Below, piece after piece: positions 2,450 to 26,461 of a DNA stretch of 26,984 bases; the first letter of the stretch is position 1; every line of letters begins with the position of its first letter. The DNA is from a virus (taxonomy: Duplodnaviria; Caudoviricetes), in the IMG/VR virus record IMGVR_UViG_3300017989_000388, positions 1 through 26,984 of that record; one strand, given 5' to 3'. Position numbers and translations under genes: made by a program. A model generated the notes under the pieces. That model was not told the DNA's origin. It made no database searches and saw only the letters and a list, made by a program, of their open reading frames with translations.

Positions 2450-2467
2450 GCTGCTTGCTTGCTTTCA

Positions 2468-2989: not shown

Positions 2990-3020
2990 CGGTTCGCCTC
3001 CTGCCTGCTAAAACATCGGC

Positions 3021-3245: not shown

Positions 3246-3254
3246 GTCTTACTC

Positions 3255-4898: not shown

Positions 4899-4900
4899 GG

Positions 4901-7443: not shown

Positions 7444-7450
7444 GCTGTTC

Positions 7451-8094: not shown

Positions 8095-8111
8095 CTGCTT
8101 GCCTCATGTTC

Positions 8112-8618: not shown

Positions 8619-8620
8619 GA

Positions 8621-9136: not shown

Positions 9137-9170
9137 CGACTGTCTCCTGATAGCTCACATAAAGTGAACT

Positions 9171-10217: not shown

Positions 10218-10236
10218 CGTGTTGGCCTCCTGCCAT

Positions 10237-10266
10237 AGAAAAAAGTAAACGGCCTAACCAAAGGCC
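10237..10266 (-). terminator. Weak terminator-like hairpin upstream of the capsid gene
   Basis: Minus strand GGCCT-ttggtt-AGGCC followed by GTTTACTTTTTT. Confidence 0.3.
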
Positions 10267-10274
10267 AACGATCG

Positions 10275-10697: not shown

Positions 10698-10729
10698 GTT
10701 TGGCTCCTTACTGGTTTAGTTGGTTGAAT

Positions 10730-10772
10730 AAAAAAACGGCCACCTGCCCTCCGTAGAGGGCGGATGACCGTT
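10730..10772 (-). terminator. Rho-independent terminator
   Basis: Minus strand AACGGTCATCCGCCCTC-TACG-GAGGGCAGGTGGCCGTT then T-tract: 17-bp stem with two G-U pairs and one mismatch, c(UACG)g tetraloop. Confidence 0.8.
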
Positions 10773-10809
10773 CGCAGTGGTCGTTACTGAATCGAGTTGT
10801 CGGGGCCGC

Positions 10810-12279
10810 TTACTTGGCGGCTTCCATCTTGGCGACGGCGTCGTCGAGGTCGGCGATCTTCTCGCCGCGACTGCGAGCGTCCGTCATGTACTTGATCGCT
10901 TTCTCCACCGTGTCCTTGGAGTAGCGGTCGCGGATGCCGCTTGCCGGAGCGGCCGCGTCGGCGGCCGGGGTTTCGACGGCGGGCATTTCACCCGGCGGGA
11001 TCGTGCGGCCGTCGACCAGCGGATCTTTGAACTCGTGGATCGCCTCGATGCGGGCGTTGAACTCCTCGGGGGTCATTTTCGAGCCGCGGGAGTAAAGGCA
11101 GCGATCCTTTTCTTTTTCGAGGTCGAGCGAGTATTTCATCGTCGCCTCGGTCAACTCGTCGAGTCGTCGGGAATCCTCCTTGGCGTTGGCGTCTTGCGCC
11201 ATCGCTTTGCGGAGATTGACGTTTTCGGCCTGCAAGCTGCGGTTCTCGGCCTCCAAGCGTCGGTACTTGGCGACCTCGCGGTTGCGGGCCGTGCGGTTGA
11301 TCGAGTACATCTCGGTCTCGTCCTCGTCTTCCTCCTCACCCTCGGCAGCCGGTTCCGGTGCGGGGGCCGGTTCCTCTGCGCCGATGTCGCCACCCAAGTC
11401 GCCGGTTTCCTCGGCCGGGGGCGGTTCGATCGGCTCCTCGTTCGGCATCTCGTCGGCCGGGTCGGCGATCGGCGGTTCAATGGGGGCTTCGTCGAGTGGT
11501 TCGTCGGCCGGGGCTTCCTCGATTGCGGCCTCGTCTTCGACCGCGGGGACTTCCGCCTCGTCGGTCATCTCGGTCAGCTTCTGCCATTGCTTGGTCGTCA
11601 TTAGGGCGTCGAGTACGGCTTTTACAATTGCGTCTTGATCCATGGACGGTGTCTCCGTTTTGGCAAATTTCTTAACGAATGTGTTACCGCCCGCAGGTGC
11701 TGCCGGGGCTGCGGCCGGACAAGAGGCGGTGTACTTTTCTACGGTTTCGCCGCTCGCTAACCTAGCGAACCGCAGGCCCGTGTCGAGCCTCGGCGTCTCT
11801 GCTCCCAGCATCGCGATCGGGTCGATAATCCGCTCGCCCATCGACTTCGCCATCCAAACCTCGACCGACCGCCGCGGCAGTTTCTTCGCCTTGGCGTGGC
11901 TCTCGCGAAAGTGCCATTCGTCGCAGGCGATCGCGTAGCGGGGGTTGAGACGGCCGAATTTGACGACGCGGAAGTTACCGGCAAAGCCCATCACCTCGGG
12001 CATCTTCGCGCCCTTGATGATCTCCTCGTGTTCGGGCGTGTGACCGTCGGTCAGAGCGGCGAAGTCGTCGCTGTCGAGGATTCGGTAATTACAGCGGTCG
12101 CAGATCGCTTGCAGCGCCTCTTTATTGTACTGCTGCGTGCGGCCCTTGCGGTCTTTAGTGGTGTGTTCCGTGAAGACGATCGAGTCGCGGACATGCACGA
12201 AGTTGCTCGCCGGGAATTTTTGCCGGGCGAGTCGCTCGATCTTCTGGTGATCGCGGAGTTGGTGGGTGCTGGCAACCAT
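10810..12279 (-). CDS. Prohead protease-scaffold fusion (Mu gpI/Z-like)
   Basis: N-terminal domain with GHT, PRRSVEVW and IAMLGAETP (His/Ser protease-like motifs), then an acidic Pro/Glu linker and coiled-coil scaffold. Position before capsid genes. Confidence 0.75.
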   Translation of the reverse strand: MVASTHQLRDHQKIERLARQKFPASNFVHVRDSIVFTEHTTKDRKGRTQQYNKEALQAICDRCNYRILDSDDFAALTDGHTPEHEEIIKGAKMPEVMGFAGNFRVVKFGRLNPRYAIACDEWHFRESHAKAKKLPRRSVEVWMAKSMGERIIDPIAMLGAETPRLDTGLRFARLASGETVEKYTASCPAAAPAAPAGGNTFVKKFAKTETPSMDQDAIVKAVLDALMTTKQWQKLTEMTDEAEVPAVEDEAAIEEAPADEPLDEAPIEPPIADPADEMPNEEPIEPPPAEETGDLGGDIGAEEPAPAPEPAAEGEEEDEDETEMYSINRTARNREVAKYRRLEAENRSLQAENVNLRKAMAQDANAKEDSRRLDELTEATMKYSLDLEKEKDRCLYSRGSKMTPEEFNARIEAIHEFKDPLVDGRTIPPGEMPAVETPAADAAAPASGIRDRYSKDTVEKAIKYMTDARSRGEKIADLDDAVAKMEAAK

Positions 12280-12281
12280 AT

Positions 12282-12320
12282 AAAAAAAGACCGCACAGCG
12301 CGAAGCACGCCGTGCGGTCT
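12282..12320 (-). terminator. Terminator-like hairpin with U-tract abutting the protease start codon
   Basis: Minus strand AGACCGCACGGCG-tgcttcg-CGCTGTGCGGTCT-TTTTTT-AT-ATG: 13-bp stem. Confidence 0.75.
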
Positions 12321-12573
12321 AGCGGGACCGTTTCCGATTGGACTGCTGCTCAAGCCGTCGCGATAGAGCATCTTCATCGCGTTCAACAATTGAACGGATG
12401 GGACCGAACTTGCCTCGGTGACGAGAGATGCGAATGCCGATCGTGCCGACGAAATCTTCGGCGTCGGCATTGCGGAGGAGAATCTCTAGCACGCGGAGAG
12501 CGCGTTCCCTCTTATCTTTATTATACACTCTACGTGAACTTTGGGTAGTGTAATCACCCTGCTTGCTGCTCAT
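12319..12573 (-). CDS. Small basic hypothetical protein (about 84 aa)
   Basis: Likely start MSSKQ at 12573. Helix then FVGTIGIRISRHRGKFGPI strand pattern, loosely DUF2292-like. Confidence 0.55.
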   Translation of the reverse strand: MSSKQGDYTTQSSRRVYNKDKRERALRVLEILLRNADAEDFVGTIGIRISRHRGKFGPIRSIVERDEDALSRRLEQQSNRKRSR

Positions 12574-15500
12574 TTTTCTCGGATTTTCCCTGTTTTTTCC
12601 TGACAATCTCGGTTTGGATGGCCTCGGCGGCCAGTTGGAGGGTGTTGCGGGCCAGGATCGTCTCGCCGACGTCGTAGCCTTTTTCCCCTTCCAACTCGGT
12701 TAATTCAGCCACCTTCCAAAGGTTCTGGCCGCCGCCGGGGCTGGCGTTCCAAACGCCAAAGCGGCCGACCGGCGTTACCATCTGGTACGCGCCGGGTTGG
12801 ACTTCGATCAGGTTCATCCGGGCGGTGGTGAACCGTTTGTACTGCTGGCGCTCGCCCCGGCGCGAGAAGGGGATCGCCGCCAATTCCTCATCGCTGACGT
12901 CGTTGAGTGCATCGTCCTCCCAAGGGTCGTAGTCCGGGTCGTCGTCGAAGGGGATCGCTTCCAGGTCGGCGTCACTGACTCGGTCGAGTGGTTGACTGCC
13001 GCGACGGTCGCTGGGGAAACCAACCTTCTGTTCAATATCCTCGATGGCGGCTTGAATCAGATCGCGGTCGTATTTTGGTGGTGCGGTGCGTTTTCCTTGT
13101 ATGAGGAAGTTTGCGAGTGCTGCCTCGGCGTCACCCTTGCCGGACATACTGCCGGTATTCCAGTGCAGCGCCTCGGGGTAGTGGCTCTCGGCGATCTGCA
13201 CTAGCTCGTCGAAGCGAAGGATATTGTCGGGATCTTCACCAGCGCGCAACCGCCTGACAATATCCCCTCGGCCTCCTGCATGTTCAATGAGACTGTTGTG
13301 TCTGTCGACTTCGTCTTTATGGTCTGCGTAGAATTGGTCGTAGTAATCCCGGAAGAAGTTACGGTCTTCCTCGTCTTCAAATATTTCCTGAAGCGTTGTC
13401 TCGTACTGTTTCTGCATGGCAGAGGCGTTTTCAGACTTCGCCTCTTGTTTACGGCGGGCAGCTTCAGCGGCTGCGGCTTGTGTCTGCTCCCATCTTGCTG
13501 CTTCTTCCGCGGCGATCTGTTGGTCGCGAGCCTCGCGCTGCTCGGGCGTTAGCTTGGCGTTGGCCTCCTCTTGTAGCCGCTGGAGTTCCTCGGCACCGGC
13601 TCGATTCAATCGTTCCTCGTGCCGCCGCTGCTCGTCTTTGTAGGCCCGCTCCGACTGGACCGTCTGCTGCTCTCGCTCCTCGATGTCAAATAGCGTCCCC
13701 TGCTCGCCCGTGATCGGGTCGGCGTCGGCGCTGCCGGTTAAGCCGTTGCTAGGTTCGGCAGGCGCGCTATCCTGTTGCCGCGCCCACTCAGCCAAAGCAG
13801 CGTCGTTCTCTGGGGCGGTCGGCGTCGGTGTTTCGACCGGCGGCTGCAACGCCTCCAGTCGCGACATGATCTCGGCGCGGAGATCGTCGTGAAACTTTTT
13901 GGCGGTGTCTGTCTGTGTGGCGGTGGTGTCAGTCTCAGCGGCTGTCTCGCCGGGTTGATCGGTCGGCGGCGGCTCGGGTTCTGGCTCCGCTGCCTGCTCG
14001 GGCGGTTCCGGCTCGTCCGGTCTCTCACCGGCCGGACTGAGCATGTCTTCTAACTGCTCGTCGCTGATCGTCTCGGGTGGCAGCGTGTGTTCGCCTGCCA
14101 ACTGCTCCGATTGTTCCAAAGCGGCTTGTCGCTGGCTTTGGAGTCTTTGCTGCTCATCTTCTTCGGGAGCTTCCGTTGTCGTTGCGGCCGCGGCTTGCTT
14201 GTCGGCTTCCAAGTCCTCGGACGCCCGCAAGAATTGCAGCGCCGCCCTCATCGACATATTGCGGAACTTGGGATCCTTCTGCTGTTTCTCGTTCTCGGCG
14301 GCGGGTTGTTGCCAACCGAGACCGGCCGCCAAGCCCATCACCATCGAGACTAGAGACGCCGTTTTCTTGCCGCCAAAGCGGTTGGCAAGGTACATCGCCC
14401 CCAGGGCCGCGGCGGTGAACGCCAGCGACTTGAGCATGTTGGCCGACGACTGCGGCGACTCGGTGACCGGCGCACCGCTCGCCTCGTTGAGATGGGCGAG
14501 CGCGGCCTGCATGTTTTGATCGGCGGTCAAGTCGGGATCGGCGTGCCAGCCGCCGTCGATCGCTTTATTCAGTAAGTGTCGCACCGCACCGGCGTTGTTC
14601 TGGGCTAGACCGACGTCCTGCCGGTACTGGTAGCCGTGTGACTCGGCGTGGGCGACTGTGTCGTGCATGTGGGCGGATTGCTGGTGCATCCAGCGGGCCG
14701 CCGCTTGCGCGTTCTCCTCGCGACTACCGCCCTGCGGCTTGTAGCCGAGCAACCCGGCCGCCTTCAAAACGTAAGAGTTGGCGTGACGGGCTTGCGTCTG
14801 GGCGTCGGCTTGCGGGTCTTTTGGTTGGTAGCCGTAGGCCGCGGCGGTGGACATGATGTCGACCGGCTCCTGCGACTCCTGCTGGCCGCCCTGCTGCTCT
14901 CCTCCTGGCAACACGGCGTCCCCGCTGATCGGGTCGGTGGGCGCTTGCGGCTCACCGGCCCCCCGCTCGATCGGGGCTTCGTCCTGGTAGCGGACCTCGC
15001 CCGTGCGGGTGTTTTGGAAGCCCTGCCCGCCACTCTCGCCGACATACGGCACCCATTCAGAATCCGCCGTACCGGAGATCGGCACTTCGGGTGACTGCGG
15101 AGCCGGCGGCGGTTGCGACGAATCAATCAAGTCGTCGGCTGGGGTAGCTTGGCTCATGCCGACCGCGGCCATCGGCGGTTGCTGCTCGAAGCCGTCGGGT
15201 GTGATCGGCAGCGCCGGTTTAGCAACCCCTTCCTGCTGCGGGGCTTCTTGCGGCGCGAACGGTGCCTGCTCGCCCGGCTTCGTTGGTAGCGGCGGCATCG
15301 TGTCGAACGGCGCAGACAAACTGGTCGACTTACCGTCCATTGAATCCGACTCGTCGACCGGCAGTACGGGAGATGAAGCGTCGGGTGCTGGCGGCGGCTC
15401 GGGGATCTGTCCGCTGGCCTGTTTACCGGAGTCATCGGCGTCCAGCCAAGCGGCGATCTGTTCGTCGCTTGGGTTCCTGTTGGCGCTCTTAAAGGCATTG

Positions 15501-17533
15501 CGGACCCAGTCGCTCTGCTTGTACTTCATCTTGTCGTCGGGGACACGAGCTTGATCGTTGCTCGCCACAAAGACCGGAGCCGTGTTGCCACCGCTGACCA
15601 CCTCCACCACCTGAAAGTGCTTGGCGAGTAGATTGCGGACCAACGATGTTGCATCTTCAGGGTCCGTGCCATTGAACGCACCCTTACGAGGTTCGCTCGG
15701 CAGGTTGGCGATAACGACGCCGCCAGCGGCAACCGACTCGGCGATCTCTTGCACGGTCCTTTTGAGTTCCTCATCCGAATCCTGTACGTTCAACACGTTG
15801 GAAGCAAAGACAACGTCGTAGGTTTTACTGAGAGCGTCGGGGTCGTGTAGCTCGCCCTGGTTGCCGCCGTAGTCGTAGGCGGTCACATCGTAGCCACTGC
15901 CTTTACGCCGTTCGGCGTGTGCGGCGGTTTTACCTGCGCTAAAGTCGAGGATCGTGCTGCTTTTGTCCACGAGCTTCTCGACGATACGCGGGACGACCGC
16001 ATTAGGGCCGATCATACCGCTGGAGCGACTGGTCGCGTTGGCAACGCCGACCGCTTGCTGGTCGTGCGGGTGCTGGCGATACCGCTCGGCGATCACCACT
16101 TCCCGCTCGGTCGGCTCGCCCTTCATGTAACGAATGACTTCGTCTTTGTCCTCCTCAAAGGCGAAGATGGCGTTACCCTGTTGGATCGCGACGGCGACTC
16201 CCTCGGGGGCGTGGGCTTTGGCGTCGTGCCATTGGGCGCGGGCGGAGTGGTATCGACGCTCGTACCGATAGCGGTTGTCTTTTGGATTGAATGTTCCCAA
16301 GTTATCCACGCTCTTGACTTGCTCTGGTGAAAAGGCGATCCAGTGGTCGGTGTCCTCGGTGACGCCTTCCATCCCGGGGAAGAACGACTTGGCGTTGCGG
16401 TAATGCACGCCGTCGTGGCCTAGCTCGCGAAAGACTTCTTGGGTGTACTCGCCAACCGCCCAGTTACCTTCGTCATCCATAAGCTCGGTGCAGTGCTTTT
16501 TAATGGCGGTGTAAACATCGTAGGCAGAGATACCGCTGTCGGCGTAATCAGCAAGTTCCTGCCATGCGTCCTGCCACTGGTCACCCCAACCTTCGTAGTT
16601 GTAGTAGCAACTCTGCATGGCGTTCATGAGGTCGATCGCGGAGCCTCCCTCGTCAACTACTTCGGCGCTGTCTTCGTCGTAGTCGGGGTCTTCGGGACTG
16701 CGACCTTGATCGTCTTCCCAAATCAACTCAAGCTCGAAGATCGTGCCACCCTTGCGGTGACCTTCGTTGGCTTGCAGAACGACCGGCTTACGGATATTAA
16801 GGTAGGCTGAGATCACTCGCTGTGTGTCGCCGACTAGTTCTTTGCGAGCGAGATCATGGACGTAGTCATCGAAGTCGGTGTCGGGGTCGAGTTCCCCTTC
16901 CTCGATCTTCTCGTCGAAGTCCCAGCGGAACTTGTCGTCATCTGCAACTCGTTCTACGAACTGCTCGATGCGGCCGGTGAGATCCGGTCCTTCGCCCGCA
17001 TAGTTACTGTCTACGTCGTCGGCAGAGGTCGAGAAATAAAACCCGGTCCCCATGTCGTTTTCGATGTTCGCGTTGTCGTAACCGAACGCCTCGAAGTCGT
17101 GGGTCGTGCCGTGCTTGACGATTAGTGGGTTGCCGTCCTCATCGACCACCTTCGAGTATTGGATCGTCTCGGCAGGCTCGTGAGTACGCGGGTCGATCAC
17201 CTTCGAGGCGTTCTCGGGATCGCCCTCCCAGTCGCCAAACCAGTTCTTGAAGACCTGGGAGCGAGTGCCGTTCTCCTGCCAGTCGCGGATCGCCTCTTGT
17301 ACCTCCGGTGGATATTCTTCTTTCTGCTCTTGCTCGGCTGACGCAGGCTGCCCGTCCGGTTGTTCATCCGGCTGACTCGGTGGCTCGGGTTGGGCAGGCT
17401 GCTCGGGCGCAGCACCCGAACCATCGGGACACTCGTCCTGGTAGCGGACCTCGCCCGTGCGGCTATTCTGCCAGCCCTGACCGCCACGCTGACCGACAAA
17501 CGGAACCCATTCACTCATTACGGAATCTTTCAT
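12554..17533 (-). CDS. Large polyvalent protein (ART-PolyVal-like, MutS-I-like fragment, SAM methyltransferase, helical repeats, membrane hairpin, coiled coil); probable internal virion protein
   Basis: FKNWFGDW..SKV...PLIVKHGT..F..F...GFYFS...YLNIRKP...GHDGV...IAFSPEQVKSVDNLGTF (16260-17270); ILDFSAG...YD...YDVVFASNVLNV (15560-16050). Start may be MSEW at 17518. Confidence 0.8.
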   Translation of the reverse strand: MKDSVMSEWVPFVGQRGGQGWQNSRTGEVRYQDECPDGSGAAPEQPAQPEPPSQPDEQPDGQPASAEQEQKEEYPPEVQEAIRDWQENGTRSQVFKNWFGDWEGDPENASKVIDPRTHEPAETIQYSKVVDEDGNPLIVKHGTTHDFEAFGYDNANIENDMGTGFYFSTSADDVDSNYAGEGPDLTGRIEQFVERVADDDKFRWDFDEKIEEGELDPDTDFDDYVHDLARKELVGDTQRVISAYLNIRKPVVLQANEGHRKGGTIFELELIWEDDQGRSPEDPDYDEDSAEVVDEGGSAIDLMNAMQSCYYNYEGWGDQWQDAWQELADYADSGISAYDVYTAIKKHCTELMDDEGNWAVGEYTQEVFRELGHDGVHYRNAKSFFPGMEGVTEDTDHWIAFSPEQVKSVDNLGTFNPKDNRYRYERRYHSARAQWHDAKAHAPEGVAVAIQQGNAIFAFEEDKDEVIRYMKGEPTEREVVIAERYRQHPHDQQAVGVANATSRSSGMIGPNAVVPRIVEKLVDKSSTILDFSAGKTAAHAERRKGSGYDVTAYDYGGNQGELHDPDALSKTYDVVFASNVLNVQDSDEELKRTVQEIAESVAAGGVVIANLPSEPRKGAFNGTDPEDATSLVRNLLAKHFQVVEVVSGGNTAPVFVASNDQARVPDDKMKYKQSDWVRNAFKSANRNPSDEQIAAWLDADDSGKQASGQIPEPPPAPDASSPVLPVDESDSMDGKSTSLSAPFDTMPPLPTKPGEQAPFAPQEAPQQEGVAKPALPITPDGFEQQPPMAAVGMSQATPADDLIDSSQPPPAPQSPEVPISGTADSEWVPYVGESGGQGFQNTRTGEVRYQDEAPIERGAGEPQAPTDPISGDAVLPGGEQQGGQQESQEPVDIMSTAAAYGYQPKDPQADAQTQARHANSYVLKAAGLLGYKPQGGSREENAQAAARWMHQQSAHMHDTVAHAESHGYQYRQDVGLAQNNAGAVRHLLNKAIDGGWHADPDLTADQNMQAALAHLNEASGAPVTESPQSSANMLKSLAFTAAALGAMYLANRFGGKKTASLVSMVMGLAAGLGWQQPAAENEKQQKDPKFRNMSMRAALQFLRASEDLEADKQAAAATTTEAPEEDEQQRLQSQRQAALEQSEQLAGEHTLPPETISDEQLEDMLSPAGERPDEPEPPEQAAEPEPEPPPTDQPGETAAETDTTATQTDTAKKFHDDLRAEIMSRLEALQPPVETPTPTAPENDAALAEWARQQDSAPAEPSNGLTGSADADPITGEQGTLFDIEEREQQTVQSERAYKDEQRRHEERLNRAGAEELQRLQEEANAKLTPEQREARDQQIAAEEAARWEQTQAAAAEAARRKQEAKSENASAMQKQYETTLQEIFEDEEDRNFFRDYYDQFYADHKDEVDRHNSLIEHAGGRGDIVRRLRAGEDPDNILRFDELVQIAESHYPEALHWNTGSMSGKGDAEAALANFLIQGKRTAPPKYDRDLIQAAIEDIEQKVGFPSDRRGSQPLDRVSDADLEAIPFDDDPDYDPWEDDALNDVSDEELAAIPFSRRGERQQYKRFTTARMNLIEVQPGAYQMVTPVGRFGVWNASPGGGQNLWKVAELTELEGEKGYDVGETILARNTLQLAAEAIQTEIVRKKQGKSEKNEQQAG
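14979..15022. repeat. Dispersed repeat, copy 2 (encodes GFQNTRTGEVRYQDE)
   Basis: 14990-15022 is identical to 20196-20228 (33 bp); 14979-15008 is identical to 17433-17462 (30 bp). Confidence 0.9.
17433..17462. repeat. Dispersed repeat, copy 1 (N-terminus of polyvalent protein)
   Basis: tcgtcctggtagcggacctcgcccgtgcgg, identical to 14979-15008. Confidence 0.9.
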
Positions 17534-18341
17534 TGGCTGACTGAACCGCTTGCAAGAACTTGGGCGTGTAGCCTGCGTCTTGTGTCGCGGCGATTAACGC
17601 GGAGAGATCCTTGGGAAAACACTTGCCGCCAAAGCCGGGGGCGTGCTTGAAGGCCATCGTGTGCATCGGTTCGACGCGGGGGTCGAGCGCCCATAACTCG
17701 CGGGCTTCGTGGAAGCTGACGCCGTGCGACTCGCAAACCTTTCGCATCTCGTTGGCGAAGGTGACCTTAGTGGCGAAGTAGACGTTCTCCCAATACTTGA
17801 CGACCTCGGCGGTCGTGCTGTCGGTCAACATGTACTGCTTGCTCGGCCCGGCGATATAAGCGAAGACGTCGGCGATCTCCTCGGCGGCTCGACGCGAGTG
17901 CGGGGCGGCACCGAAAATAAACCACGGCGTGGCGGCGACGTCGGTCTCGAAACCAAACTCGCTGTGGTACTTCGATTCGCCAATATATTCAGGGGAGAAT
18001 ACGATTGGCACCCGCAACCGCTCGGCTAACTGGTAACAGTAGCCCGGCGGCACCGTCGACTTAATCAAAAAGCTGGGTGCTTCCGAACCGTCGGGAACCG
18101 CGTCGACAATCTCATTGACCACCTGCTCGACGATCGCGGTGTCGCAGCGGCCGTCCTTGCGCTGTTGCGTCGGTACGCAGACGCAAACCAGATTGCAACC
18201 AGCAAGTAAATGCGGATGGACTTTGCAATCCAAATCGGATGTTAAAATCTGCTCGAAGCGGCGCTGAAAAAACTTAGTCATCGCGCTGCCGACGTAGCCG
18301 CGTGCGCCAACGATACCGATCCTGTACTCGCGTGGATCCAT
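17511..18341 (-). CDS. UDP-glucose/GDP-mannose dehydrogenase family protein lacking the C-terminal UDP-binding domain
   Basis: IGIVGARGYVG, VCVPT, IKSTVPPG, FSPE, AEVVKYWENVYFATKVTFANE and catalytic GFGGKCFPKD; ends at 276 aa. Confidence 0.9.
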   Translation of the reverse strand: MDPREYRIGIVGARGYVGSAMTKFFQRRFEQILTSDLDCKVHPHLLAGCNLVCVCVPTQQRKDGRCDTAIVEQVVNEIVDAVPDGSEAPSFLIKSTVPPGYCYQLAERLRVPIVFSPEYIGESKYHSEFGFETDVAATPWFIFGAAPHSRRAAEEIADVFAYIAGPSKQYMLTDSTTAEVVKYWENVYFATKVTFANEMRKVCESHGVSFHEARELWALDPRVEPMHTMAFKHAPGFGGKCFPKDLSALIAATQDAGYTPKFLQAVQSANERFRNE

Positions 18342-18374
18342 CCTGCTTGCCCTGCTTGCTAAAGGAAAACGTGA

Positions 18375-21300
18375 TTACTCGGCGCGTTGAATCTCGACGC
18401 CGTCTCGCATTGGTTTGTAGACCCAGCCGCCACGGGAAAAGAGCGACTTCTGCACCTTTGGCCCACCCGGCTCCGGTTTTTTCTCGGGGAGTTTAGAGGC
18501 GGGCGTGGGCGGGGTCGTGGGTTCGTCCGACCGGCGGCTTTCGCGTAGTTGCTGCCGGGCGAGTTTATCAGTCAAGCCAGTGGGAATCGGGTCGCCTTTA
18601 TAATCCTTAGAAGGGCCGTCGACTGTGTAACTGACCCAGGCACGGATCGGTACGCCCGCCAGTTTAGCGGCGGCGGTGCGGCGGTGACCGTCCGAGACTC
18701 GCAGCTTGCCACCCTCGGTTTGGATGACGTCGATCGGCGGCAGCGTCTTGCCCTCCTTAATCCATTCGGCGTAGCGACGAGCATCCCAACCGCGGCCTTC
18801 AGGGTTGAATTTTTCGTCGGTGTAGTCGCCTTCCGGGGTTTCCAACTCAGCCGGGTCGATCTCGATCAACTGCTCAATATCGCGACCGTGAATCCCTTCG
18901 AAGTCGTCGTCGATCTTCCAACTGCCGATCGGGAAGTTCTCCTCGAACATCGGAAATTGGCGGCTACCCTGGCCGGCAGCTCGGTCCTTGTAGTGATTGT
19001 GACGAGCTTTAGATAACTCACTCGATTTCAAAAACTGACTCTCGTCCATCGTGCCGGGGTGGGTGCCGACCGGGGCGAGACCCGTTGTCTTGATTGACCC
19101 GGCGGCGCGGGCGGGATTAGGTGCTTCCTCCTGGTGGCCCGGTAGGTTGTCGACGTCGAACATCGTCTGCTGACCGGCCAAGTCTTTGTGGCGGCCGCCC
19201 TCGGATAGAAATGTCTGCTGCTTACCTCCATTGCTGACAATCTTATCCGCCGCCTTGACGGGTTCGTCGTTCGTTAGTTGGAACGGTTTTTGCTTCGATC
19301 GCGGCTTAATGAATCCCGATAGACCTTTGTGGGTTTTGACGGGTTTGGGCGACTCTTTCCGTTTGACCCGCTTCTCGATCGCGGGTAGGGCGGTGTCGAG
19401 CAGTTTCTGCCAGTCGGACTCCTCGACTTGCTCGCCCTTGGCGACGGCCTCCATCGTGCGGCGTTGATCGTCGTCGAGTTCCCACTTGACGGCCATTACA
19501 TCGCGCTTTTGAAAGTTTGCACTTTGCAGCATGTTGCGGAAATTGAACGCAGAGTTGTCGACGTTGTCTTCCTTGAAACTCTGCTTTGTGTTTTGCCCTT
19601 TCTTGAAAGCGATGTGGTCTTGGATCGCCTTGGTGGAGCGGTTGATCGAGTTGGCGATCGTGGTGTGCGAGACGCCGTACTCCTCTTTCAGCTCGCGGGT
19701 CGACTTGCCGTCCACTTTATTGGCAATGAAAATCTGCTGGTCTTGTTCGCTGAGACCCTTGAGTGCTTCGCGGATGCTGTCCGCCTTCAGTTGCTGCTCC
19801 TCAAGCAAGTCTTCATCCGGCCCGGCATCAGCGACCGGCTCGGGGGCGTCGTCGCTCCAACCTTTCTCGTGACTGCCGCTGACCTTCGACTTGCGGGCCA
19901 AGTCGAGAACCCGTGAGTTGAAGATCGACATGATGTGTCGCTTCTTCTGCTCCATCTCGTCGCCTTCGCCCTTCGACTTGGTGGGGTCGAAGGTTTTCAG
20001 GCCGCGCACGATCGCGTCGTCCGCTTCGTTCTCAATGTCGGCCGGGTCGATGCCGGGGAAGCGGTTGATCCGCTTGTGGAGCATCCCTTTCAGTTTCTCG
20101 CGGAAGAACTCGTGCTGTTTCTCAAAGTCGCCCGGCAGTTCCGTCTCGTCTTCGTAGGGGTCGTACTTCTTTTTAGGTGGTGCCGGTTTCTCGTCGCGGA
20201 CCTCGCCCGTGCGGGTGTTTTGGAAGCCGCGGCGACCGCGTTTACCCTGGTAGGTGACCCAAAAGTCACCGTGGCTGTCCTCGAACTGCTCGATCTCGTC
20301 TTCGTAGCGGGCCTTGTTGTCGTCGCCCTCCTCGACGACCGGCAGTTCCGGCCGCTGGTATTTCTCGTGGCCGGGAAGCGGCTCGATGCCTTGCACGGTC
20401 GACTTCCGCCGCGACATTTGCATCGCCTCGGCACCGCCGCCCCCTTGCAGGAGCGTGTTGACCGGGCCGCCGTTGGGGCCGAACAGGCCCTGAGCGCCTT
20501 GGTCGACCGTACCCAATTCCGCTTGGGCAAAGGCCGGGTTTTGCAGCATGTCGTCGTCGTCGTCGGGAGAGGAAGCGCCGACCAGAGCGGCGACGTCGGA
20601 CGCCTTCAACTTCAAGCCCATATTCCAGGCTTGTTCGAGGGCTTGCAGTCGCTGCTGGACGTCCGGTTCCTCGGTGTCGATCTTAAATTTGATCCGGCAG
20701 GATCTCGACTCGGGGAAGTTGTAGAGTTGGATCGGTCGCACGAGGTCGCGGGTCAGCGTCTCTTGCAAACCGATCGCGTCGAAGCGGATGATGTCGGCGT
20801 AGGTCGCCAAGTGAGCGTCGGCCACGCCGCTGCCCAGCCCAGTCGACTCGGCTTCGCTGGTCAACACCTGACCGAGAATGTACCGCTTGATCTTATGGGC
20901 GAAGTAGCTGGTCAAGAACTCGCGCAGTTCAGCCACGCCCCCCAATCCTGGCTCGATATGCTGGGGGATGTAGAGACCGCTGTCGTCGTTCGGCACTACC
21001 GGCACGAGGATAATGCTGCGGCCGCCGCCGATCCGCTCTTGGGCGGCGACTCGGGTGGCGGCCTCGGCCTCGTCGTTGCCTTGCGGATAGGGCCAGATTT
21101 CAAAGCCGAAAGCCGACCGCTCCAGGTACTCCAAGGCCCAGGTCAAGCACTCGGTCATGGCGAGCCATGTCCAGTAGATCCTCGACCGCACGCCGACACC
21201 GTGGATGCTGCCGGCCGAGAGCGGATCTTCCCAGGCCCCGTCTTCGATCAGGTGTTTATGAACGGCTACGCAGCGGCGCTCCGGTCGCGTCAGAAAGTAA

Positions 21301-21980
21301 GCCAACCCACGATCGGTTGGCTCAACTTGATTGATTTGTTCGCCCCAAACCGAGTAGTAGCGGTGGATAATCCCGGCACCGACACGGATGCCGATCTGCG
21401 TGGGGTCGTAGCGGTGGCGGCCGTCGTCGTAACGGAAGACGAGCTTGTCGCCATGCACGGGCGTCCAGGCGGCCGGGGTGCGGTACTTCTCACCGCGGAC
21501 GTAATCCCAGCCCCAGTACCAACTATTGGCGGAGCGGCCGTACCAGATCGCCTCCAAGAGGTTGTAGCGGAATTTTAAGAAGTCGGGGATCGACTCGATG
21601 ATGTCGGTGACTTTCCGACAGAGTTCCTTCTCGCTTTGACTGTTTTCGTTCTCCGGCTCGATGTGCCAGTTGAGCAGGGCGGTGCCGCGCAGGCGGGCCT
21701 CCAGGCATTCCATGATCGCCGGCTCATTCCGCATGATGCGGGCGTTCTGCTTGCTGTCCTGGATCGCCTCGTCCGACTCGGGGTAGACGCGGGAGATCGT
21801 GCCAACCCGCCCCTGCATCGTGAGGATGTGCGGGATGACCGGCTTGCCCAGATTGGGAACCGCGCCGGGAATCCCCGCGGCCCGGTCTTTGACTTGGGCC
21901 TGGATGAACGAGGCGGGGACGTCGCGCAGGTTAAGAACTTCCGGTTTCGTCCGGCCGCTCTCGTCGGTCTTCATAATCAT
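18375..21980 (-). CDS. Portal protein (Mu gp29/DUF935-like) with C-terminal sigma70-like and ParB/Srx domains
   Basis: First ~480 aa: LEAIWYGRS, W..YLERSAFG, IKRYILGQVLTSEAESTGLGSGVADAH, LQETLTRDLVRPI..NFP. Then sigma2/sigma4-like (19610-20130) and PPIDV..GKLRVSDGHRRTAAAKLAG (18625-18875). Confidence 0.88.
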   Translation of the reverse strand: MIMKTDESGRTKPEVLNLRDVPASFIQAQVKDRAAGIPGAVPNLGKPVIPHILTMQGRVGTISRVYPESDEAIQDSKQNARIMRNEPAIMECLEARLRGTALLNWHIEPENENSQSEKELCRKVTDIIESIPDFLKFRYNLLEAIWYGRSANSWYWGWDYVRGEKYRTPAAWTPVHGDKLVFRYDDGRHRYDPTQIGIRVGAGIIHRYYSVWGEQINQVEPTDRGLAYFLTRPERRCVAVHKHLIEDGAWEDPLSAGSIHGVGVRSRIYWTWLAMTECLTWALEYLERSAFGFEIWPYPQGNDEAEAATRVAAQERIGGGRSIILVPVVPNDDSGLYIPQHIEPGLGGVAELREFLTSYFAHKIKRYILGQVLTSEAESTGLGSGVADAHLATYADIIRFDAIGLQETLTRDLVRPIQLYNFPESRSCRIKFKIDTEEPDVQQRLQALEQAWNMGLKLKASDVAALVGASSPDDDDDMLQNPAFAQAELGTVDQGAQGLFGPNGGPVNTLLQGGGGAEAMQMSRRKSTVQGIEPLPGHEKYQRPELPVVEEGDDNKARYEDEIEQFEDSHGDFWVTYQGKRGRRGFQNTRTGEVRDEKPAPPKKKYDPYEDETELPGDFEKQHEFFREKLKGMLHKRINRFPGIDPADIENEADDAIVRGLKTFDPTKSKGEGDEMEQKKRHIMSIFNSRVLDLARKSKVSGSHEKGWSDDAPEPVADAGPDEDLLEEQQLKADSIREALKGLSEQDQQIFIANKVDGKSTRELKEEYGVSHTTIANSINRSTKAIQDHIAFKKGQNTKQSFKEDNVDNSAFNFRNMLQSANFQKRDVMAVKWELDDDQRRTMEAVAKGEQVEESDWQKLLDTALPAIEKRVKRKESPKPVKTHKGLSGFIKPRSKQKPFQLTNDEPVKAADKIVSNGGKQQTFLSEGGRHKDLAGQQTMFDVDNLPGHQEEAPNPARAAGSIKTTGLAPVGTHPGTMDESQFLKSSELSKARHNHYKDRAAGQGSRQFPMFEENFPIGSWKIDDDFEGIHGRDIEQLIEIDPAELETPEGDYTDEKFNPEGRGWDARRYAEWIKEGKTLPPIDVIQTEGGKLRVSDGHRRTAAAKLAGVPIRAWVSYTVDGPSKDYKGDPIPTGLTDKLARQQLRESRRSDEPTTPPTPASKLPEKKPEPGGPKVQKSLFSRGGWVYKPMRDGVEIQRAE
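20196..20228. repeat. Dispersed repeat, copy 3 (in portal extension)
   Basis: gcggacctcgcccgtgcgggtgttttggaagcc, identical to 14990-15022. Confidence 0.9.
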
Positions 21981-22096
21981 GGTCGCAGCTTTCGCTTTTG
22001 GTGTCCGTACTCGTTTGCTGCTTGCTGCATCCGGTACATTTACAATCCGCCCTGACCGCTCCGTCGCTTGCTACGCAATGCAGAATCTTCATGTCG

Positions 22097-22339
22097 CTAG
22101 TTCTCGCTCTGGAGCGACTGCATCAGCCACTCGATGTTGTCGGGGTGGATGATGAGCCGGCGGCCGAGCTGGTAGACGGGGACATGCGGGGTCCGCTCCA
22201 TCCGCATCACTCCGCAGGTGAGTTTGGTGGTCTCTTTGGCAACCGTCAGACAAGGTGAAACACAGAAACCGTTTAAGTCGCCCAAGCCCAGTGGGTTGAA
22301 TTGTTGGGCCGTTGTTTTCTTTTGTACGGTGATCGTCAT
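22097..22339 (-). CDS. Hypothetical protein, 80 aa (MTITVQKK...)
   Basis: ATG overlaps the KTSC gene stop (ATGA), GAGGA upstream. The longer 167-aa version would overlap the upstream gene. Confidence 0.65.
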   Translation of the reverse strand: MTITVQKKTTAQQFNPLGLGDLNGFCVSPCLTVAKETTKLTCGVMRMERTPHVPVYQLGRRLIIHPDNIEWLMQSLQSEN

Positions 22340-23124
22340 GCTCGTCCTCGGTCGGGTGTGCCGCGATCCGGTAAGCCGCGGTCGGGCCTGAATCGTCGCT
22401 CGGGGAGCGTCGAGTGCCAGACCTCGCGGGAGTTGGGTACACGAATCCTCCGTTCCATGTACCCGGCAGCCGTCGCTAGACGCGGAATGTACTGGCCGGT
22501 GACGCCGTCCTCTTGTACAATCGTGGCGGGGTCGGCAAGCCGATAGGAATACTGGTGACCGTCGATCGAACCGCGGACACGCAGGTTGTCCCAAACCCAC
22601 TGCCCCTTCGACTTGGCTTTACGGAAGCCGTACCAGTAACGGTAAGGGACGTCGTCGTAGGCGTAGGTCGCACCCGGCCTACCACTGTTGCGGCCGCCGT
22701 AGGCTCCCTTGCTGGCGATCAACGCACCGACTGGCCCGCGGCCGGTGATGTGTTCGCCGGCGATCATCGGGGCCTGATAGGTGACGTAGAGGACGCAGGT
22801 ATTGCGTCCCGTGCGACGGCAACCGATCGAATGGACGTTGCTCGACGAGACGTCGATCATGCCCTCTAAGGCTTCGACCATCTCGTCGCGGCCAATCTCC
22901 TCGCCTGAGACGTCCTCGGCGGGGCCGGGTCGCGATTGCTCGCGTTGCTGTCGCGGCCGGTAGCGTTCGCCCGGCGTGGACCGGGAAGCGCGAGGGCGCT
23001 CCTCCTCCAACATGCCGAGCGCCTCCAGGATCTCCCTCGTCAACTGCCCAGCCGGAGTCGTTTCAAACCGCCGCAGTGCTGCGCGTCTAGCGGCTTCCGT
23101 TGCTTGTCGAAAGAGTCTTGACAT
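22336..23124 (-). CDS. KTSC-domain protein
   Basis: MIDVSSSNVHSIG...LYVTY...TYAYDDVP...YGFRKAKSKGQWVWDNLR matches KTSC with a Gly-rich insertion. Confidence 0.75.
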   Translation of the reverse strand: MSRLFRQATEAARRAALRRFETTPAGQLTREILEALGMLEEERPRASRSTPGERYRPRQQREQSRPGPAEDVSGEEIGRDEMVEALEGMIDVSSSNVHSIGCRRTGRNTCVLYVTYQAPMIAGEHITGRGPVGALIASKGAYGGRNSGRPGATYAYDDVPYRYWYGFRKAKSKGQWVWDNLRVRGSIDGHQYSYRLADPATIVQEDGVTGQYIPRLATAAGYMERRIRVPNSREVWHSTLPERRFRPDRGLPDRGTPDRGRA

Positions 23125-23320: not shown

Positions 23321-24766
23321 TTAATTCCGTCCCCTCCAACTGCCTTGCAGGTTGTCGCGGATGCGGTTGCGGCTGTCACCGCTCCGCATTACCGAGATCC
23401 CACGGTAGTTGGCGTGGGGTGTTTCCAGCGGCTTGACCGGGTCCATGCCAATACCCGCCATCTTGGCGAGCTTGTTGAATGCGCCGCTGGTGGCGTCGAC
23501 TTGATCCATAAAGGCGAACTCGGGGAACGCGCAGACCTCGTCGAGGTAGTCAGAGTTCCAGGGGGCTTGTTTGACTTTGATGTTGCCTGCCTCGGCTTGG
23601 GCGTTCCACGGTTGGGCGCGGATGATTTTCGCTTCACCCGGCAGTCGCTCTTTGCCTTTAACGCGGTAGCCGCTGCCGCTGACAACGTCGCGGTGGATGG
23701 GAAAACCGATCAACTTACGGATCGTGTTCTCCATCGACTCCTTGCCGCCGGAGCCGCCTTCCTGCTCGACATAGATCAACACGGTGTTGCCGTACTTCTC
23801 CGCATCGGAACGGGCGGTGTTGAGCATCACCTGCTCGCGCTCCCTGGCGGACCACTGACCGCGGACGACATCCTCGATGTAAAACAGACCCGTGCGTTGG
23901 TCGTGGGCCATTAGCACGCCGGCGGTGTAGGCGGCGGCAGGGTTGTCGCTGGCGGCGGTCCCCGCTTTATCCCAGTAGCGAATACGTTGGGCGATCCGCG
24001 GCACTTCGCCGACGACCTCAAACCACTCGCGGGCAAACATCAGACCGCCGAGATCGACGAATTGACCCTCCAATTCCTGGGCGGCCAGGGCCGACGAATA
24101 GAGGTCTTTGACGTTGCGGTAAAACTCCTCCGGCAGGAAGGGGTTGTCGGCAGTGCGGGCTTGAATCAAGACGGCGTTCGCCTTGGGGATATTGACGCCG
24201 TTGATCCGGTTGTAAAAAGTGCCGAACGTCCAGTGTTTGTAGCCGCGGGGGGTGAACGTCAAAAGGATCGGACCCATTTCGCCGCGGGGTTGACCGGGGC
24301 GGCGGAAGCGGCACATCGGCACGCCAATGTCAAACGCCTCCTTGGAGATCACCGACGGTTCGTCGTACCAGAGACTGGCTCGGTTCGGACCGCGCAAGCG
24401 CTCGGGGTTGTCGGCGGAACGGAAAACAAAGTTGGCGGTGCCGCCGTCTCGCGTCCTGACCGTCGCCTCGGGGATCGGCGTCTTGCGGCCGGAGACCCAG
24501 AGGTTCAGTTCCTGGGCGGTTTCACGAAACGCCGGGTAGGTGGTGTCGTGAATGTCGATCCAGGTCGGCGAGATGACCATGTGGCTCTCGTCCCGCCGGG
24601 CGCGGATCAGGCGGTCGATTGTGGCGACCTTCGTCTTGCCCGTTCCCCGGCCGCCGCAAAAGCCGATGATCTTCGGGTGGTCCGGCTCCAGCGCCTTGGC
24701 GGTCGCGGCGTGGAAGTCGTACTGCTTCTTGTAGAGACGGGTTTGGGGAACTTGTCCACGGATCAT
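23321..24766 (-). CDS. terL: Terminase large subunit
   Basis: Walker A GGRGTGKT, LRG..LWYDE Walker B, LTFTP coupling motif, nuclease motifs YWDKA, VEQEGG, DQVDA. Confidence 0.95.
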   Translation of the reverse strand: MIRGQVPQTRLYKKQYDFHAATAKALEPDHPKIIGFCGGRGTGKTKVATIDRLIRARRDESHMVISPTWIDIHDTTYPAFRETAQELNLWVSGRKTPIPEATVRTRDGGTANFVFRSADNPERLRGPNRASLWYDEPSVISKEAFDIGVPMCRFRRPGQPRGEMGPILLTFTPRGYKHWTFGTFYNRINGVNIPKANAVLIQARTADNPFLPEEFYRNVKDLYSSALAAQELEGQFVDLGGLMFAREWFEVVGEVPRIAQRIRYWDKAGTAASDNPAAAYTAGVLMAHDQRTGLFYIEDVVRGQWSAREREQVMLNTARSDAEKYGNTVLIYVEQEGGSGGKESMENTIRKLIGFPIHRDVVSGSGYRVKGKERLPGEAKIIRAQPWNAQAEAGNIKVKQAPWNSDYLDEVCAFPEFAFMDQVDATSGAFNKLAKMAGIGMDPVKPLETPHANYRGISVMRSGDSRNRIRDNLQGSWRGRN

Positions 24767-25368
24767 TCGGCGACACTGCCTTCGATGACGTTCTCGTCGT
24801 GTTCTAGTTGTTGGGCGTCGTTGTTGAATTGCACGCCGATCTTCTCGGCCTGCTCGATCGTGTCGACATGCACCACCGGCTTGATGTCGCTGCGGTCGTT
24901 GACAACCACCACTTGAATGTCGAGCGGGCTGTCGCCGACACCGCTACGCAGATCGGGAGTGTCGAGTCCCTGGATGCGGAGCTTGTCCATAATCGACTTA
25001 CGGGCAACCTCTAAGAACGTGGGGTTGCCGCTTTGCCCCTTGCGGATCGTCTCCTCGAAGCCGCCGTCCTTGCCGCCGATCCGCTTGCGGGTGGTGACGT
25101 CATCCTCTTTGCTTTTCTCGAAAGCCTCGTAGGCTTCCTTCTCAATGACGTCGAGCTGGGAGAGTTCGCGCTCTAAGATCAGGTCCGCGTTCTTGACCCG
25201 GCTCGCCAGCGCTTCCTCTAAATTCTTATGGATGTAGCGGGTGACTTGGCGGCGCGAGAGGCCGACCCGGCGGGCGATCTCGGTGGTTGACAGTCGCTTG
25301 CGGCAGAGTCTGGCAACCTGCGCACGGCGGGCCTCGATGTCAGCTTGTTCCGGTAGCGACCGACTCAC
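24763..25368 (-). CDS. terS: Terminase small subunit (N-terminal HTH)
   Basis: RRAQVARL..KRLSTTEIARRVGLSRRQVTRYI HTH, helical core, GNPTFL..GLD motif; directly upstream of TerL. GTG at 25368 has a GGAGGA SD. Confidence 0.78.
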   Translation of the reverse strand: MSRSLPEQADIEARRAQVARLCRKRLSTTEIARRVGLSRRQVTRYIHKNLEEALASRVKNADLILERELSQLDVIEKEAYEAFEKSKEDDVTTRKRIGGKDGGFEETIRKGQSGNPTFLEVARKSIMDKLRIQGLDTPDLRSGVGDSPLDIQVVVVNDRSDIKPVVHVDTIEQAEKIGVQFNNDAQQLEHDENVIEGSVAE

Positions 25369-26461
25369 TCTGTTCCTCCACTTGTTCAACTAGGCGTTTG
25401 GCGGCGTATCGCATCTTGCCAACCTTGGCCGGGGTTAAATCCTCGTAGCCTTCGTTGGTCAAGATTTTGCAGATCGTCGTGGCGCTCATCCCCTCGTCTT
25501 CCGCCATCGTGAGAATCCGCTGCGAAAGCGTGTCGAGCAGCGGATTGTCCCCTTCGTGTGGACTTTTCGGAATGACTTCGTCGACCAGCTTCTGCCAAGC
25601 GGCGTCGTTGATCGCGTCGTTGGTCTCGACCGCCTGCTCGTGCATCGACTTCGGCCGGGTGTGCAAAGTCTCGCTGTAGTCGACCGGCAGCTTGACGTTC
25701 AGTTCGACCGCCTTGGTGACGATCTCCTCGCGGGTCACTTCGGGGTACATCTTTTGCAGTTGTTTCAGCGAGACCCCCGCTTCGATGTGCATCTCGATCG
25801 GCTCGGCCGGCTTGTCGGGGGTTGGCGTCAGCGCCTCGATCTCCCGTTTGCGGGCTTTACGTTTCTCCCAGTCCTCCTCGACTGACTCGCGGTACTCGCG
25901 ATCGTGAGTCGATTCCTTGGGGTAGTGTTCGGCGTAGGGGAAGTCGTCGCCGACCTCGTTGTTGTTTTTCTTTAAGTAGAGGTAGATCCGCTGTGTCAAT
26001 GTCTCGTCGGGGCGACCGTCCGCGGTGAAATACTCGTACATTTTGGCGGCTTGCCGGATCGAGACACCGCCCGCCCCGCCCAGGCCGTCAATCAATTCAA
26101 CCAGTGGTTCCAAGGGGACACTGATAAACGGTCGCGTGGCTTGCACGGCCGCGTCGAGCGCCATCCACATCCGCTCGGTCCCCTCTTGCGGGGTGCCGGG
26201 GATGTCGGCCTCGATCGCCCTGCGCCAGCGGGTCCATTCATCAAGGAACACCTCGGCGGCTAGTACCATGCCGCGATCTTCCAGCGGGTAGTCTTCGTCC
26301 TGGCACTCACCTTCAACCAAGGCGACCGCCCGTTCAATCTCCGCGTTGACGGCGGGCAACATGTAGCCCTGCTCGTTGGGCGCGGCGGCGGCCGAGTCGT
26401 TCATCCAATTGTCGCGGACCTCGTCGAGTAGTAGAATTGCTTGCTTGAGTCGTGTGTGCAT
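25340..26461 (-). CDS. Hypothetical protein with repeated HTH-like modules
   Basis: GVSIRQAAKMY, GVSLKQLQKMY and GMSATTICKIL segments. Confidence 0.7.
   Translation of the reverse strand: MHTRLKQAILLLDEVRDNWMNDSAAAAPNEQGYMLPAVNAEIERAVALVEGECQDEDYPLEDRGMVLAAEVFLDEWTRWRRAIEADIPGTPQEGTERMWMALDAAVQATRPFISVPLEPLVELIDGLGGAGGVSIRQAAKMYEYFTADGRPDETLTQRIYLYLKKNNNEVGDDFPYAEHYPKESTHDREYRESVEEDWEKRKARKREIEALTPTPDKPAEPIEMHIEAGVSLKQLQKMYPEVTREEIVTKAVELNVKLPVDYSETLHTRPKSMHEQAVETNDAINDAAWQKLVDEVIPKSPHEGDNPLLDTLSQRILTMAEDEGMSATTICKILTNEGYEDLTPAKVGKMRYAAKRLVEQVEEQSESVATGTS

Follow-up and report, generated by a model that had tools for sequence, protein, structure and literature searches.

The window, as we call the sequence analysed here, comprises 26,984 bases and is a linear virus contig from IMG/VR (IMGVR_UViG_3300017989_000388), for which CheckV estimates a completeness of 41%. 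All of its genes lie on the minus strand. Our subject is one of them, which encodes a 1201-amino-acid (aa) protein, P0001, in which a Mu-type portal core is followed by a C-terminal extension of about 700 residues; this extension, or cargo arm, carries a module resembling an extracytoplasmic function (ECF) sigma factor. The gene and the parts of its product, in N- to C-terminal order, are as follows.

18375..21980, minus strand: portal-cargo gene P0001, 1201 aa, a single open frame
20586..21737, minus strand: Mu-type portal core, residues 82-465 (PF06074, Portal_Mu)
20185..20265, minus strand: shared 27-residue motif at the start of the cargo arm, residues ~572-599, in an 81-nucleotide (nt) direct repeat
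19584-20132, minus strand: ECF-like two-domain sigma module, residues 617-799 (sequence and fold)
19866..20132, minus strand: sigma2-like domain, divergent, residues ~617-705 (own hidden Markov model, ESM Atlas, AlphaFold2 fold)
19584..19820, minus strand: sigma4-like helix-turn-helix (HTH) domain, residues ~721-799 (TIGR02937, TIGR02985, fold)
18981..19583, minus strand: stretch of residues 800-1000, with one Q-x-x-[LM]-F motif toward its end (Q937) and a second shortly after it (Q1008)
18630..18866, minus strand: ParB/sulfiredoxin-like domain, residues 1039-1117, with the motif SDGHRRTAAAKLAG (phrog_1033)

The core of P0001 is a member of the Mu-type portal family. It matches Pfam PF06074 (DUF935) with an E value of 1.5e-35 and 123.6 bits, against a gathering score of 23.9, over profile positions 7-332 of 336, and it matches phrog_113 (portal) with an E value of 3.3e-30; residues 22-486 share 43% identity with another portal, P0003. 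Its context is a head-packaging block, in which the large terminase (TerL), two small genes and the portal follow each other, with scaffold, capsid and Mu gp36 adaptor genes downstream. Beyond the core, the initial annotation had read two sigma-like stretches in the same frame, and both are present: DIENEADDAIVRGLKTFDPTK...IFNSRVLDLARK at residues 648-697 and IREALKGLSEQDQQ...NRSTKAI at residues 736-786, corresponding to window positions 19610-20130. With one open reading frame (ORF), a PF06074 core, and sigma-like sequence and fold, its central claim that an ECF-like sigma2-sigma4 module is fused in frame to a Mu-type portal holds.

The 1201-aa frame at 18375-21980 reads through without a stop. 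Three protein variants, each of 1201 aa, come from contigs of 27,728, 12,427 and 9,060 bases and differ solely at residues 225, 576, 578 and 580. Over positions 18300-22100, contigs from four runs in three studies (two of the four runs may be the source of this DNA) contain no insertion, deletion or joint. The frame of the sigma module is intact across 183 codons. GC content at third codon positions (GC3) is 0.81 in the sigma part and 0.81 in the portal core, next to 0.80 in TerL and 0.80 in the major capsid protein; since the sigma part equals the core phage genes in this respect, its coding resembles that of a gene with a long residence in the phage. A candidate explanation that we rejected is an assembly artefact, in which the portal core and the sigma-ParB part would be separate genes wrongly joined at an exact 33-nt repeat (20196-20228). 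Logan contigs from all four runs do end at this repeat (depth ~2.7x), and their loose ends lead into the repeat copies of the neighbouring polyvalent gene. However, the repeat is shorter than typical short reads, and the same 1201-aa protein was obtained from separate assemblies. One Logan record (X1 record 1, 5233 nt) starts at the repeat, covers the sigma part, the ParB-like part and the dehydrogenase gene, enters the polyvalent gene and stops where the repeat next occurs. Three assembly-graph pieces (the portal core; sigma to the first half of the polyvalent gene; the second half of the polyvalent gene) have depths of 8.46, 8.81 and 9.62. Because no walk but the window order takes in each piece once, and because these depths are in effect equal, we take a misjoin to have a negligible chance of being correct.

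The sequence relatives of the module are mostly free sigma factors. A filter-free phmmer search of 1.84 billion representatives returned 34 proteins at E<=1e-3. Among the 23 of these that were scanned with Pfam, 18 are free ECF sigma factors (155-243 aa, with regions 2 and 4), two have region 4 only and three are multi-HTH proteins; the longer representative matches (P0004, P0005, P0007, P0008, P0019, P0021, P0023, P0026 and P0036) proved to be multi-HTH or homing-endonuclease proteins, matched through the HTH only. The whole module (residues 600-800) matches NCBIfam TIGR02985 with an E value of 1.6e-11 (44.7 bits against a cut-off of 126.4) and TIGR02937 (sigma70-ECF) with an E value of 3.3e-10 (39.8 bits, profile positions 28-164 of 165), and sigma4 alone still matches both (TIGR02937, E 2e-8 and 34.1 bits; TIGR02985, E 1.1e-8). 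For sigma2, a hidden Markov model (HMM) that we built from region 2 of the 18 ECFs, leaving out the query, gives 18.8 bits, whereas the maximum over 2000 shuffles is 5.6; these 18 ECFs had themselves been chosen as matches to the query. In the ESM Atlas, 7 of the 30 clusters nearest to residues 610-712 belong to the Sigma70_r2 set, with a score of 0.95.

The predicted fold points the same way. Sigma factors were the top fold matches of both AlphaFold2 models, one built with an ECF alignment (predicted local distance difference test, pLDDT, 84.9), on which it leans, and the other from the single sequence (pLDDT 73.5). SigL (6dv9_F) matched the module models with Z 9.9-10.4 over 160-165 residues, the single-sequence model giving Z 10.4 over 160. 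The SigE N-terminal domain (8b3z_A) aligned to the single-sequence model with Z 9.4 and a root mean square deviation (rmsd) of 2.5 over 79 residues. Region 4 of sigmaE (2h27_D) aligned to sigma4 with Z 10.3 and rmsd 1.7 over 69 residues in the alignment-based model, and with Z 10.2 and rmsd 2.3 in the single-sequence model. A complex prediction of sigma2 (A1 residues 15-110) with a Planctomycetaceae beta-prime clamp-helix stretch (L018:2167-2484) scored 0.07 against a mark of 0.32 and, having been run without controls, is evidence neither way. Sigma4 is well supported and ordinary; sigma2, which is weak by sequence, is probably present in a divergent form.

We suggest a way in which the phage could use this module. 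Portals are dodecamers whose C-terminal crown is directed toward the capsid interior, and they remain in the capsid. On this basis, the shared motif, the sigma2-sigma4 module, the stretch of residues 800-1000 and the ParB-like domain would all lie inside the head, in up to about 12 copies. The arm would be cut loose by head maturation proteolysis, and the freed arm would leave the capsid with the DNA and enter the host. There, the sigma module would bind the core of the host RNA polymerase and direct it to the phage early promoters. Proteolytic release, ejection, binding of the polymerase core, promoter-specific initiation and a planctomycete host (see below) are all steps that we infer. For the full reading, from a real and continuous gene through release and exit with the DNA to the steering of polymerase, we estimate a probability of roughly 40%.

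A number of results weigh against this reading, and we set them out together. No curated model is passed by the sigma part, since TIGR02937 has a cut-off of 42.9 bits and the module reaches 39.8. The initial annotation had expected Pfam to recognise Sigma70_r2 and r4; Sigma70_r4_2 gave 21.6-25.1 bits, at best 0.6 bits short of its gathering score of 25.7, and Sigma70_r2 gave no match. Sigma2 alone (residues 610-715) matched 0 NCBIfam families, and its contribution to the whole-module score is ~6-9 bits. The DxxQE motif of region 2.2, which we take to be central to core binding, has become NxxDD. Before the 2.4 helix, H682 replaces the Y, W or F that 17 of 18 aligned ECFs carry by alignment count, which agrees with the initial remark that the usual region-2 aromatics are replaced. 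An acidic 8-residue insert, GEGDEMEQ, stands before helix 3, where two other phage modules have K-[IF]-[TS]-T-W-L. Taken together, NxxDD, H682 and the acidic insert could mean a loss of core binding or of -10 recognition. The N688, D693 and R696 of the 2.4 helix are retained. Among ECF-family features, the sigma4 domain is thus found but the cut-off score, the region 2.2 motif and the aromatic before the 2.4 helix are not; because the curated cut-offs and two conserved positions fail, we call the module sigma-like and not an ECF family member.

The distribution of the fusion and the demands of delivery count on the same side. The fusion is known solely from near-identical copies, and by phmmer and the A1 HMM the sigma module is absent from all 120 of the other long portals examined and from all 16 portal frames of the fetched loci. 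The module scores 36-43 bits against cellular ECFs and 13-17 bits against the two phage modules described below. Because portals stay in the capsid, delivery requires that the arm be cleaved, and the locus yielded no protease, cut site or peptidase domain. Mu gpH is reportedly trimmed in mature heads. A search on Mu portal processing and the JBD30 paper gave no statement on this point. The 41% of the genome represented by the window is the late block; the early region is absent from the contig.

Two other explanations give the arm a different task. In the first, the arm would handle DNA: the sigma4 HTH and the ParB-like domain would bind phage DNA and hold or organise its end in the capsid, or protect or circularise it after entry, and sigma2 would be a structural leftover. 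The HTH domain holds 34.1 of the 39.8 bits and also weakly matches Mor, GntR, KorA and antiterminator Q models, a ParB-like domain lies further along the same arm, and small terminase-like proteins of related loci match the sigma HMM via the HTH alone. HTH and other double-stranded DNA-binding domains are also recorded, as rare cases, among the polyvalent proteins of PMC5512222. On the other hand, a full sigma2 fold is predicted even without an alignment (Z 9.4 to the sigma2 of SigE), the 2.4 helix retains its N, D and R, the module follows ECF sigma factors in domain order and linker, and the cargo of two related phages includes a Pfam-grade Sigma70_r2, which a plain DNA binder would not need. 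A DNA-handling arm is in our view unlikely, if still worth serious consideration.

The second explanation, raised in the initial annotation, is that the delivered module acts as a decoy or inhibitor, which would bind the core or the flap and clamp surfaces, block host sigmas and open no promoters, thereby stopping host transcription. It would account for changes at positions on which -10 recognition usually depends (H682, aromatic in 17 of 18 ECFs, and the acidic insert in the specificity loop), and the ART neighbour suggests a host-takeover set. But the presumed core-binding motif, which a decoy needs most, is itself altered (NxxDD), and twelve copies are few against the thousands of polymerase molecules that a cell generally holds. 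Sigma4, moreover, has an ordinary-looking recognition helix (Z 10.2-10.3 against sigmaE region 4 in complex with -35 DNA). We therefore regard a decoy as rather improbable.

To see how far the architecture extends, we turn to the relatives of the portal. Portal-core relatives of 911-2600 aa numbered 297 at E<=1e-5, of which 120 were listed and examined for cargo. In these 120 of 297, precomputed Pfam annotation gives InPase, LPD1, ART-PolyVal, DUF5661, 2H, topoisomerase IB, zeta, Fic, ADP-ribosyl-exotoxin and methylase domains. P0003 combines a portal with a ParB-like domain. In loci L002 and L003, a 1038-aa portal is followed by a polyvalent gene of more than 1436 aa; the L003 portal holds InPase (PF18823, E 5.6e-40) and its polyvalent gene has ART-PolyVal. 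This portal clade uses its C-terminus as a slot for varying cargo, and long portals with cargo are common in it; the initial annotation had mentioned neither this nor the ParB-like domain nor the polyvalent neighbour.

As for other DUF935-sigma fusions, whose existence the initial annotation had left to be checked, the 120 listed long portals contain none, but sigma modules do occur in cargo outside the portal, in P0157 and P0159. P0157 lies on a Pirellulaceae metagenome-assembled genome (MAG) contig (L016), directly after a portal-InPase gene; it has at least 589 aa, being cut by the contig end, and its Pfam Sigma70_r2 match of 35.6 bits (gathering score 24) is flanked by two HPR motifs. P0159 (2656 aa) has Sigma70_r2 (37.3 bits), r4_2 (21.3 bits), LPD1 and ART-PolyVal. 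Its locus, L021, is an IMG/VR contig of 112,930 bases with two giant ORFs side by side, 38-9364 (3108 aa) and 10001-17971 (2656 aa), and the 3108-aa ORF matches PHROGs 21376 and 30335, as does the polyvalent protein of the window. Like the window module, those of P0157 and P0159 are ECF-like regions 2 and 4 inside a large head-module or polyvalent protein, with PHROGs 1740, 11138 and 1190 in common; they differ in passing Pfam Sigma70_r2 and in not being fused to a portal. The two score 63 bits against each other. Since the window module is closer to cellular ECFs than to either of them, the comparison suggests that it was captured separately, and sigma cargo seems, on these scores, to have arisen more than once. 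Viral contigs searched with the sigma module gave no match, and those searched with an alignment of the three phage modules gave the contig of P0159 only. Among genome contigs, the portal core alone matched none, and an alignment query then gave 14 loci. Twelve of these 14 loci with related portals are Planctomycetota MAGs, and the named ESM cluster nearest to sigma2 is commonest in Planctomycetota; the host is thus likely to be a planctomycete bacterium.

These modules bear on two claims of opposite kind. A bolder form of our proposal holds that ~12 sigma modules are clipped during head maturation, enter with the DNA and reprogram the polymerase before any phage gene is expressed, doing with a sigma factor what N4 does with its virion RNA polymerase. 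In this form P0157 and P0159 would reflect a wider and so far unrecognised phage habit of placing sigma modules in head cargo; we consider this possible but doubtful. Conversely, the module might be a host ECF gene that was captured when recombination happened to place it in the cargo slot of one young lineage, and that now does nothing. The fusion does occur in near-identical copies only and in 0 of 120 related long portals, sigma2 is degraded by the standards of its family and nearest to cellular ECFs, and the exact 33-nt repeat that flanks the cargo slot could drive shuffling. Against such an accident, the frame is intact over 183 codons with a GC3 of 0.81, as in core phage genes, the fold is confidently predicted even without an alignment, and the independent sigma modules of P0157 and P0159 point to selection for sigma cargo. 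We give a functionless capture little credence.

The shared motif reads W-V-x-Y-x-G-x-R-G-x-x-G-F-Q-N-T-R-T-G-E-V-R, and its 81-nt repeat is present in three copies, one in the portal arm (20185-20265) and two in the polyvalent gene (17433-17513 and 14979-15059, at polyvalent residues 9 and 827), with the 33-nt exact core at 20196-20228 in the portal copy. An HMM of the motif found these three copies only in the six frames of the window; the C-terminal GGWVYKPMRDGVEIQ looks alike by eye and is not a copy. The motif is present in 0 of the 120 other long portals. The polymorphisms at 20243, 20248 and 20255 (residues 576, 578 and 580) fall within it. If the portal copy recombined with the third copy, 5.2 kb would be lost and the second half of the polyvalent protein would follow the portal core in frame. 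The motif may serve in docking, cutting or shuffling.

For residues 800-1000, there was no Pfam match, no relative among the 120 long portals and no usable ESM Atlas match. The ParB-like domain matches phrog_1033 (ParB-like) with an E value of 2.1e-9 and TIGR00180 (parB_part) with an E value of 1.3e-5 (25 bits, below the cut-off of 58.45), and it has no Pfam match; its match to ParB 4umk_A in the PDB is weak (E 0.75), with GHRRTAAAKLA aligned to GERRLRASKLA. The same domain shows 47% identity to the C-terminal part of the portal P0003 and is also found in P0106 and P0043. Two short motifs recur in the extensions of 121 long portals (P0001, P0003 and P0038-P0156). There are 93 instances of Q-x-x-[LM]-F where shuffling predicts 13.4, those in P0001 being at residues 937, 1008 and 1177, and 76 instances of HPR-x(2-4)-G-x-[FW], spread over 58 proteins, where 0.2 would be expected. 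The form Q-x-x-L-F resembles the sliding-clamp-binding motif of bacteria.

The neighbouring genes of the window are listed below in gene order.

24763-25389, minus strand: small-terminase-like HTH protein, first in gene order
23321-24766, minus strand: large terminase TerL, second in gene order
22336-23124, minus strand: KTSC-domain protein (weak KTSC match), between terminase and portal
22097-22339, minus strand: 80-codon ORF, directly upstream of the portal gene
17511-18341, minus strand: UDP-glucose/GDP-mannose dehydrogenase-like gene, 276 aa (PF00984, E 8.7e-26)
12554..17533, minus strand: polyvalent protein gene, 1659 aa, with ART-PolyVal and methyltransferase domains
10810-12279, minus strand: 489-codon ORF without matches, following the polyvalent gene, at the position of Mu gpI
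after the 489-codon ORF in gene order, minus strand: scaffold- or cement-like protein, capsid protein, Mu gp36-type adaptor and tail genes

The neighbouring 1659-aa protein matches Pfam ART-PolyVal (PF18760, E 4.9e-10), Methyltransf_12 (E 3.5e-5), phrog_21376 and phrog_30335. Its C-terminal part (12866-12990) contains a tandem peptide repeat, D-[VA]-S-D-x-[ED]-L-x-A-I-P-F, whose acidic-I-P-F ending resembles the C-terminal tip of the bacterial single-stranded DNA-binding protein. The dehydrogenase-like gene sits between the portal and polyvalent genes, an odd site for a sugar-nucleotide enzyme, and its 3' end overlaps the start of the polyvalent gene by 23 nt; a glycosyltransferase gene is also present in the window (1466-2449). 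Between terminase and portal, a KTSC-type protein (262-367 aa, weak domain match) is found both in the window (22336-23124) and in L016 (6322-7425), and a 344-aa ORF at the same position in L003 had no Pfam match. The 80-codon ORF has, by eye, the look of an excisionase or MerR-type HTH protein, and no Pfam match was found for it at E 0.01. The 489-aa product of 10810-12279 had no Pfam or PDB sequence match. Terminator-like sites recognised by eye, each a hairpin with a T-run, flank this ORF, one just before it (12280-12553) and the other just after it, ahead of the scaffold gene (10698-10809). Rfam and tRNA scans of the window found nothing, and no RNA sequencing runs holding this DNA were listed.

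The place of the gene in this block also bears on when the module could act. Full-length portal monomers, or a product of an internal start (M522 at ATG 20417, or M633), might serve as a late sigma factor or regulator in the producing cell before assembly. The GAGG that the initial annotation noted 8 nt upstream of ATG 20417 (M522) is there and could allow such a start, and portals can moonlight, as T7 portal Gp8 is reported to target RelA/SpoT inside the cell (PMC13483052, 2026). However, one GAGG is no surprise where there are 20 Met codons, and several of the genes here lack a Shine-Dalgarno sequence. The gene lies within the late structural block, so that its product would come too late to switch this block on, and delivery accords better with the enzyme cargo that portals carry across the clade. 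We accordingly consider it improbable that the module acts in the producing cell.

If delivery by the virion is correct, the consequences would be considerable. Phages are known to start infection with host sigmas, with an injected whole RNA polymerase (N4 and phiKZ-like phages) or with injected polymerase-modifying enzymes (T4 Alt). To these, a virion-delivered sigma factor would add a fourth route at far lower cost. Such delivery would make it understandable that a phage could control its early promoters from the first second in a host with many ECF sigmas, and it would add transcription initiation factors to the cargo of polyvalent proteins. To our knowledge, the release of a virion-borne sigma factor with the DNA to redirect host polymerase has been shown for no phage. 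Being fused to the portal, the module would have a set copy number and a definite place in the particle, which makes the idea directly testable.

Compared with known sigma factors, the module is closest to the group 4 ECFs, such as E. coli sigmaE, M. tuberculosis SigL and P. aeruginosa AlgU, which are its best sequence and fold matches and share with it the sigma2-linker-sigma4 arrangement of ~180 residues and the N, D and R of the 2.4 helix. Unlike them, it is embedded at residues 617-799 of a 1201-aa predicted virion protein, falls below all curated cut-offs, has a changed region 2.2 motif and aromatic and an acidic loop insert, and has no anti-sigma partner in view. Free phage sigmas such as T4 gp55, SPO1 gp28 and phiEco32 gp36 are likewise phage-owned members of the sigma-70 family that use the host core enzyme, which for P0001 is our proposal; they are separate, non-structural proteins made after infection, whereas the P0001 module is part of a late structural gene. 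The same holds for the group 2 sigmas of jumbo phages (PMC7824862). In the literature searched, including the accessible portions of PMC5512222, PMC7824862, PMC7318152 and PMC12282133, we found no portal-sigma fusion and no virion-packaged sigma factor.

The N4 virion RNA polymerase and T4 Alt offer a functional comparison. As described in PMC5512222 and PMC4496689, they resemble our proposal for P0001, which is of a head-packed protein that enters with the DNA and redirects transcription immediately. N4 brings a whole polymerase and T4 Alt a polymerase-modifying enzyme, whereas P0001 would bring a promoter-recognition subunit tethered to the portal. Packaging and ejection have been demonstrated for N4 and T4 and are predictions for P0001.

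The nearest parallel to P0001 is with the polyvalent proteins of Iyer, Burroughs, Anand, de Souza and Aravind (2017; PMC5512222). That paper reports portal and MuF fusions to PBECR, 2H and InPase as well as DdrB-like ParB domains, and it predicts that polyvalent cargo enters the host by injection along with the DNA, one of its themes being to "jump-start transcription". P0001 has at least two unrelated domains (portal, sigma-like and ParB-like), is fused to a virion domain and has an ART-PolyVal neighbour. It shares with the proteins described there the presence of several unrelated effector domains on one polypeptide, encoded among head genes and fused to a virion anchor, and its ParB-like domain may be of the kind given for P1 DdrB; its relatives bear InPase, LPD1, 2H and ART on the same type of portal. 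The differences are that the word "sigma" is absent from the main text of the paper, to which our check was confined (its architecture tables are held on an FTP site), that the transcription cargo described there is the N4-type virion RNA polymerase and ART, and that a metallopeptidase domain was not found in the P0001 locus. Our best reading is that P0001 is a portal-anchored variant of the polyvalent-protein theme, with sigma as a type of cargo that the literature we searched does not describe.

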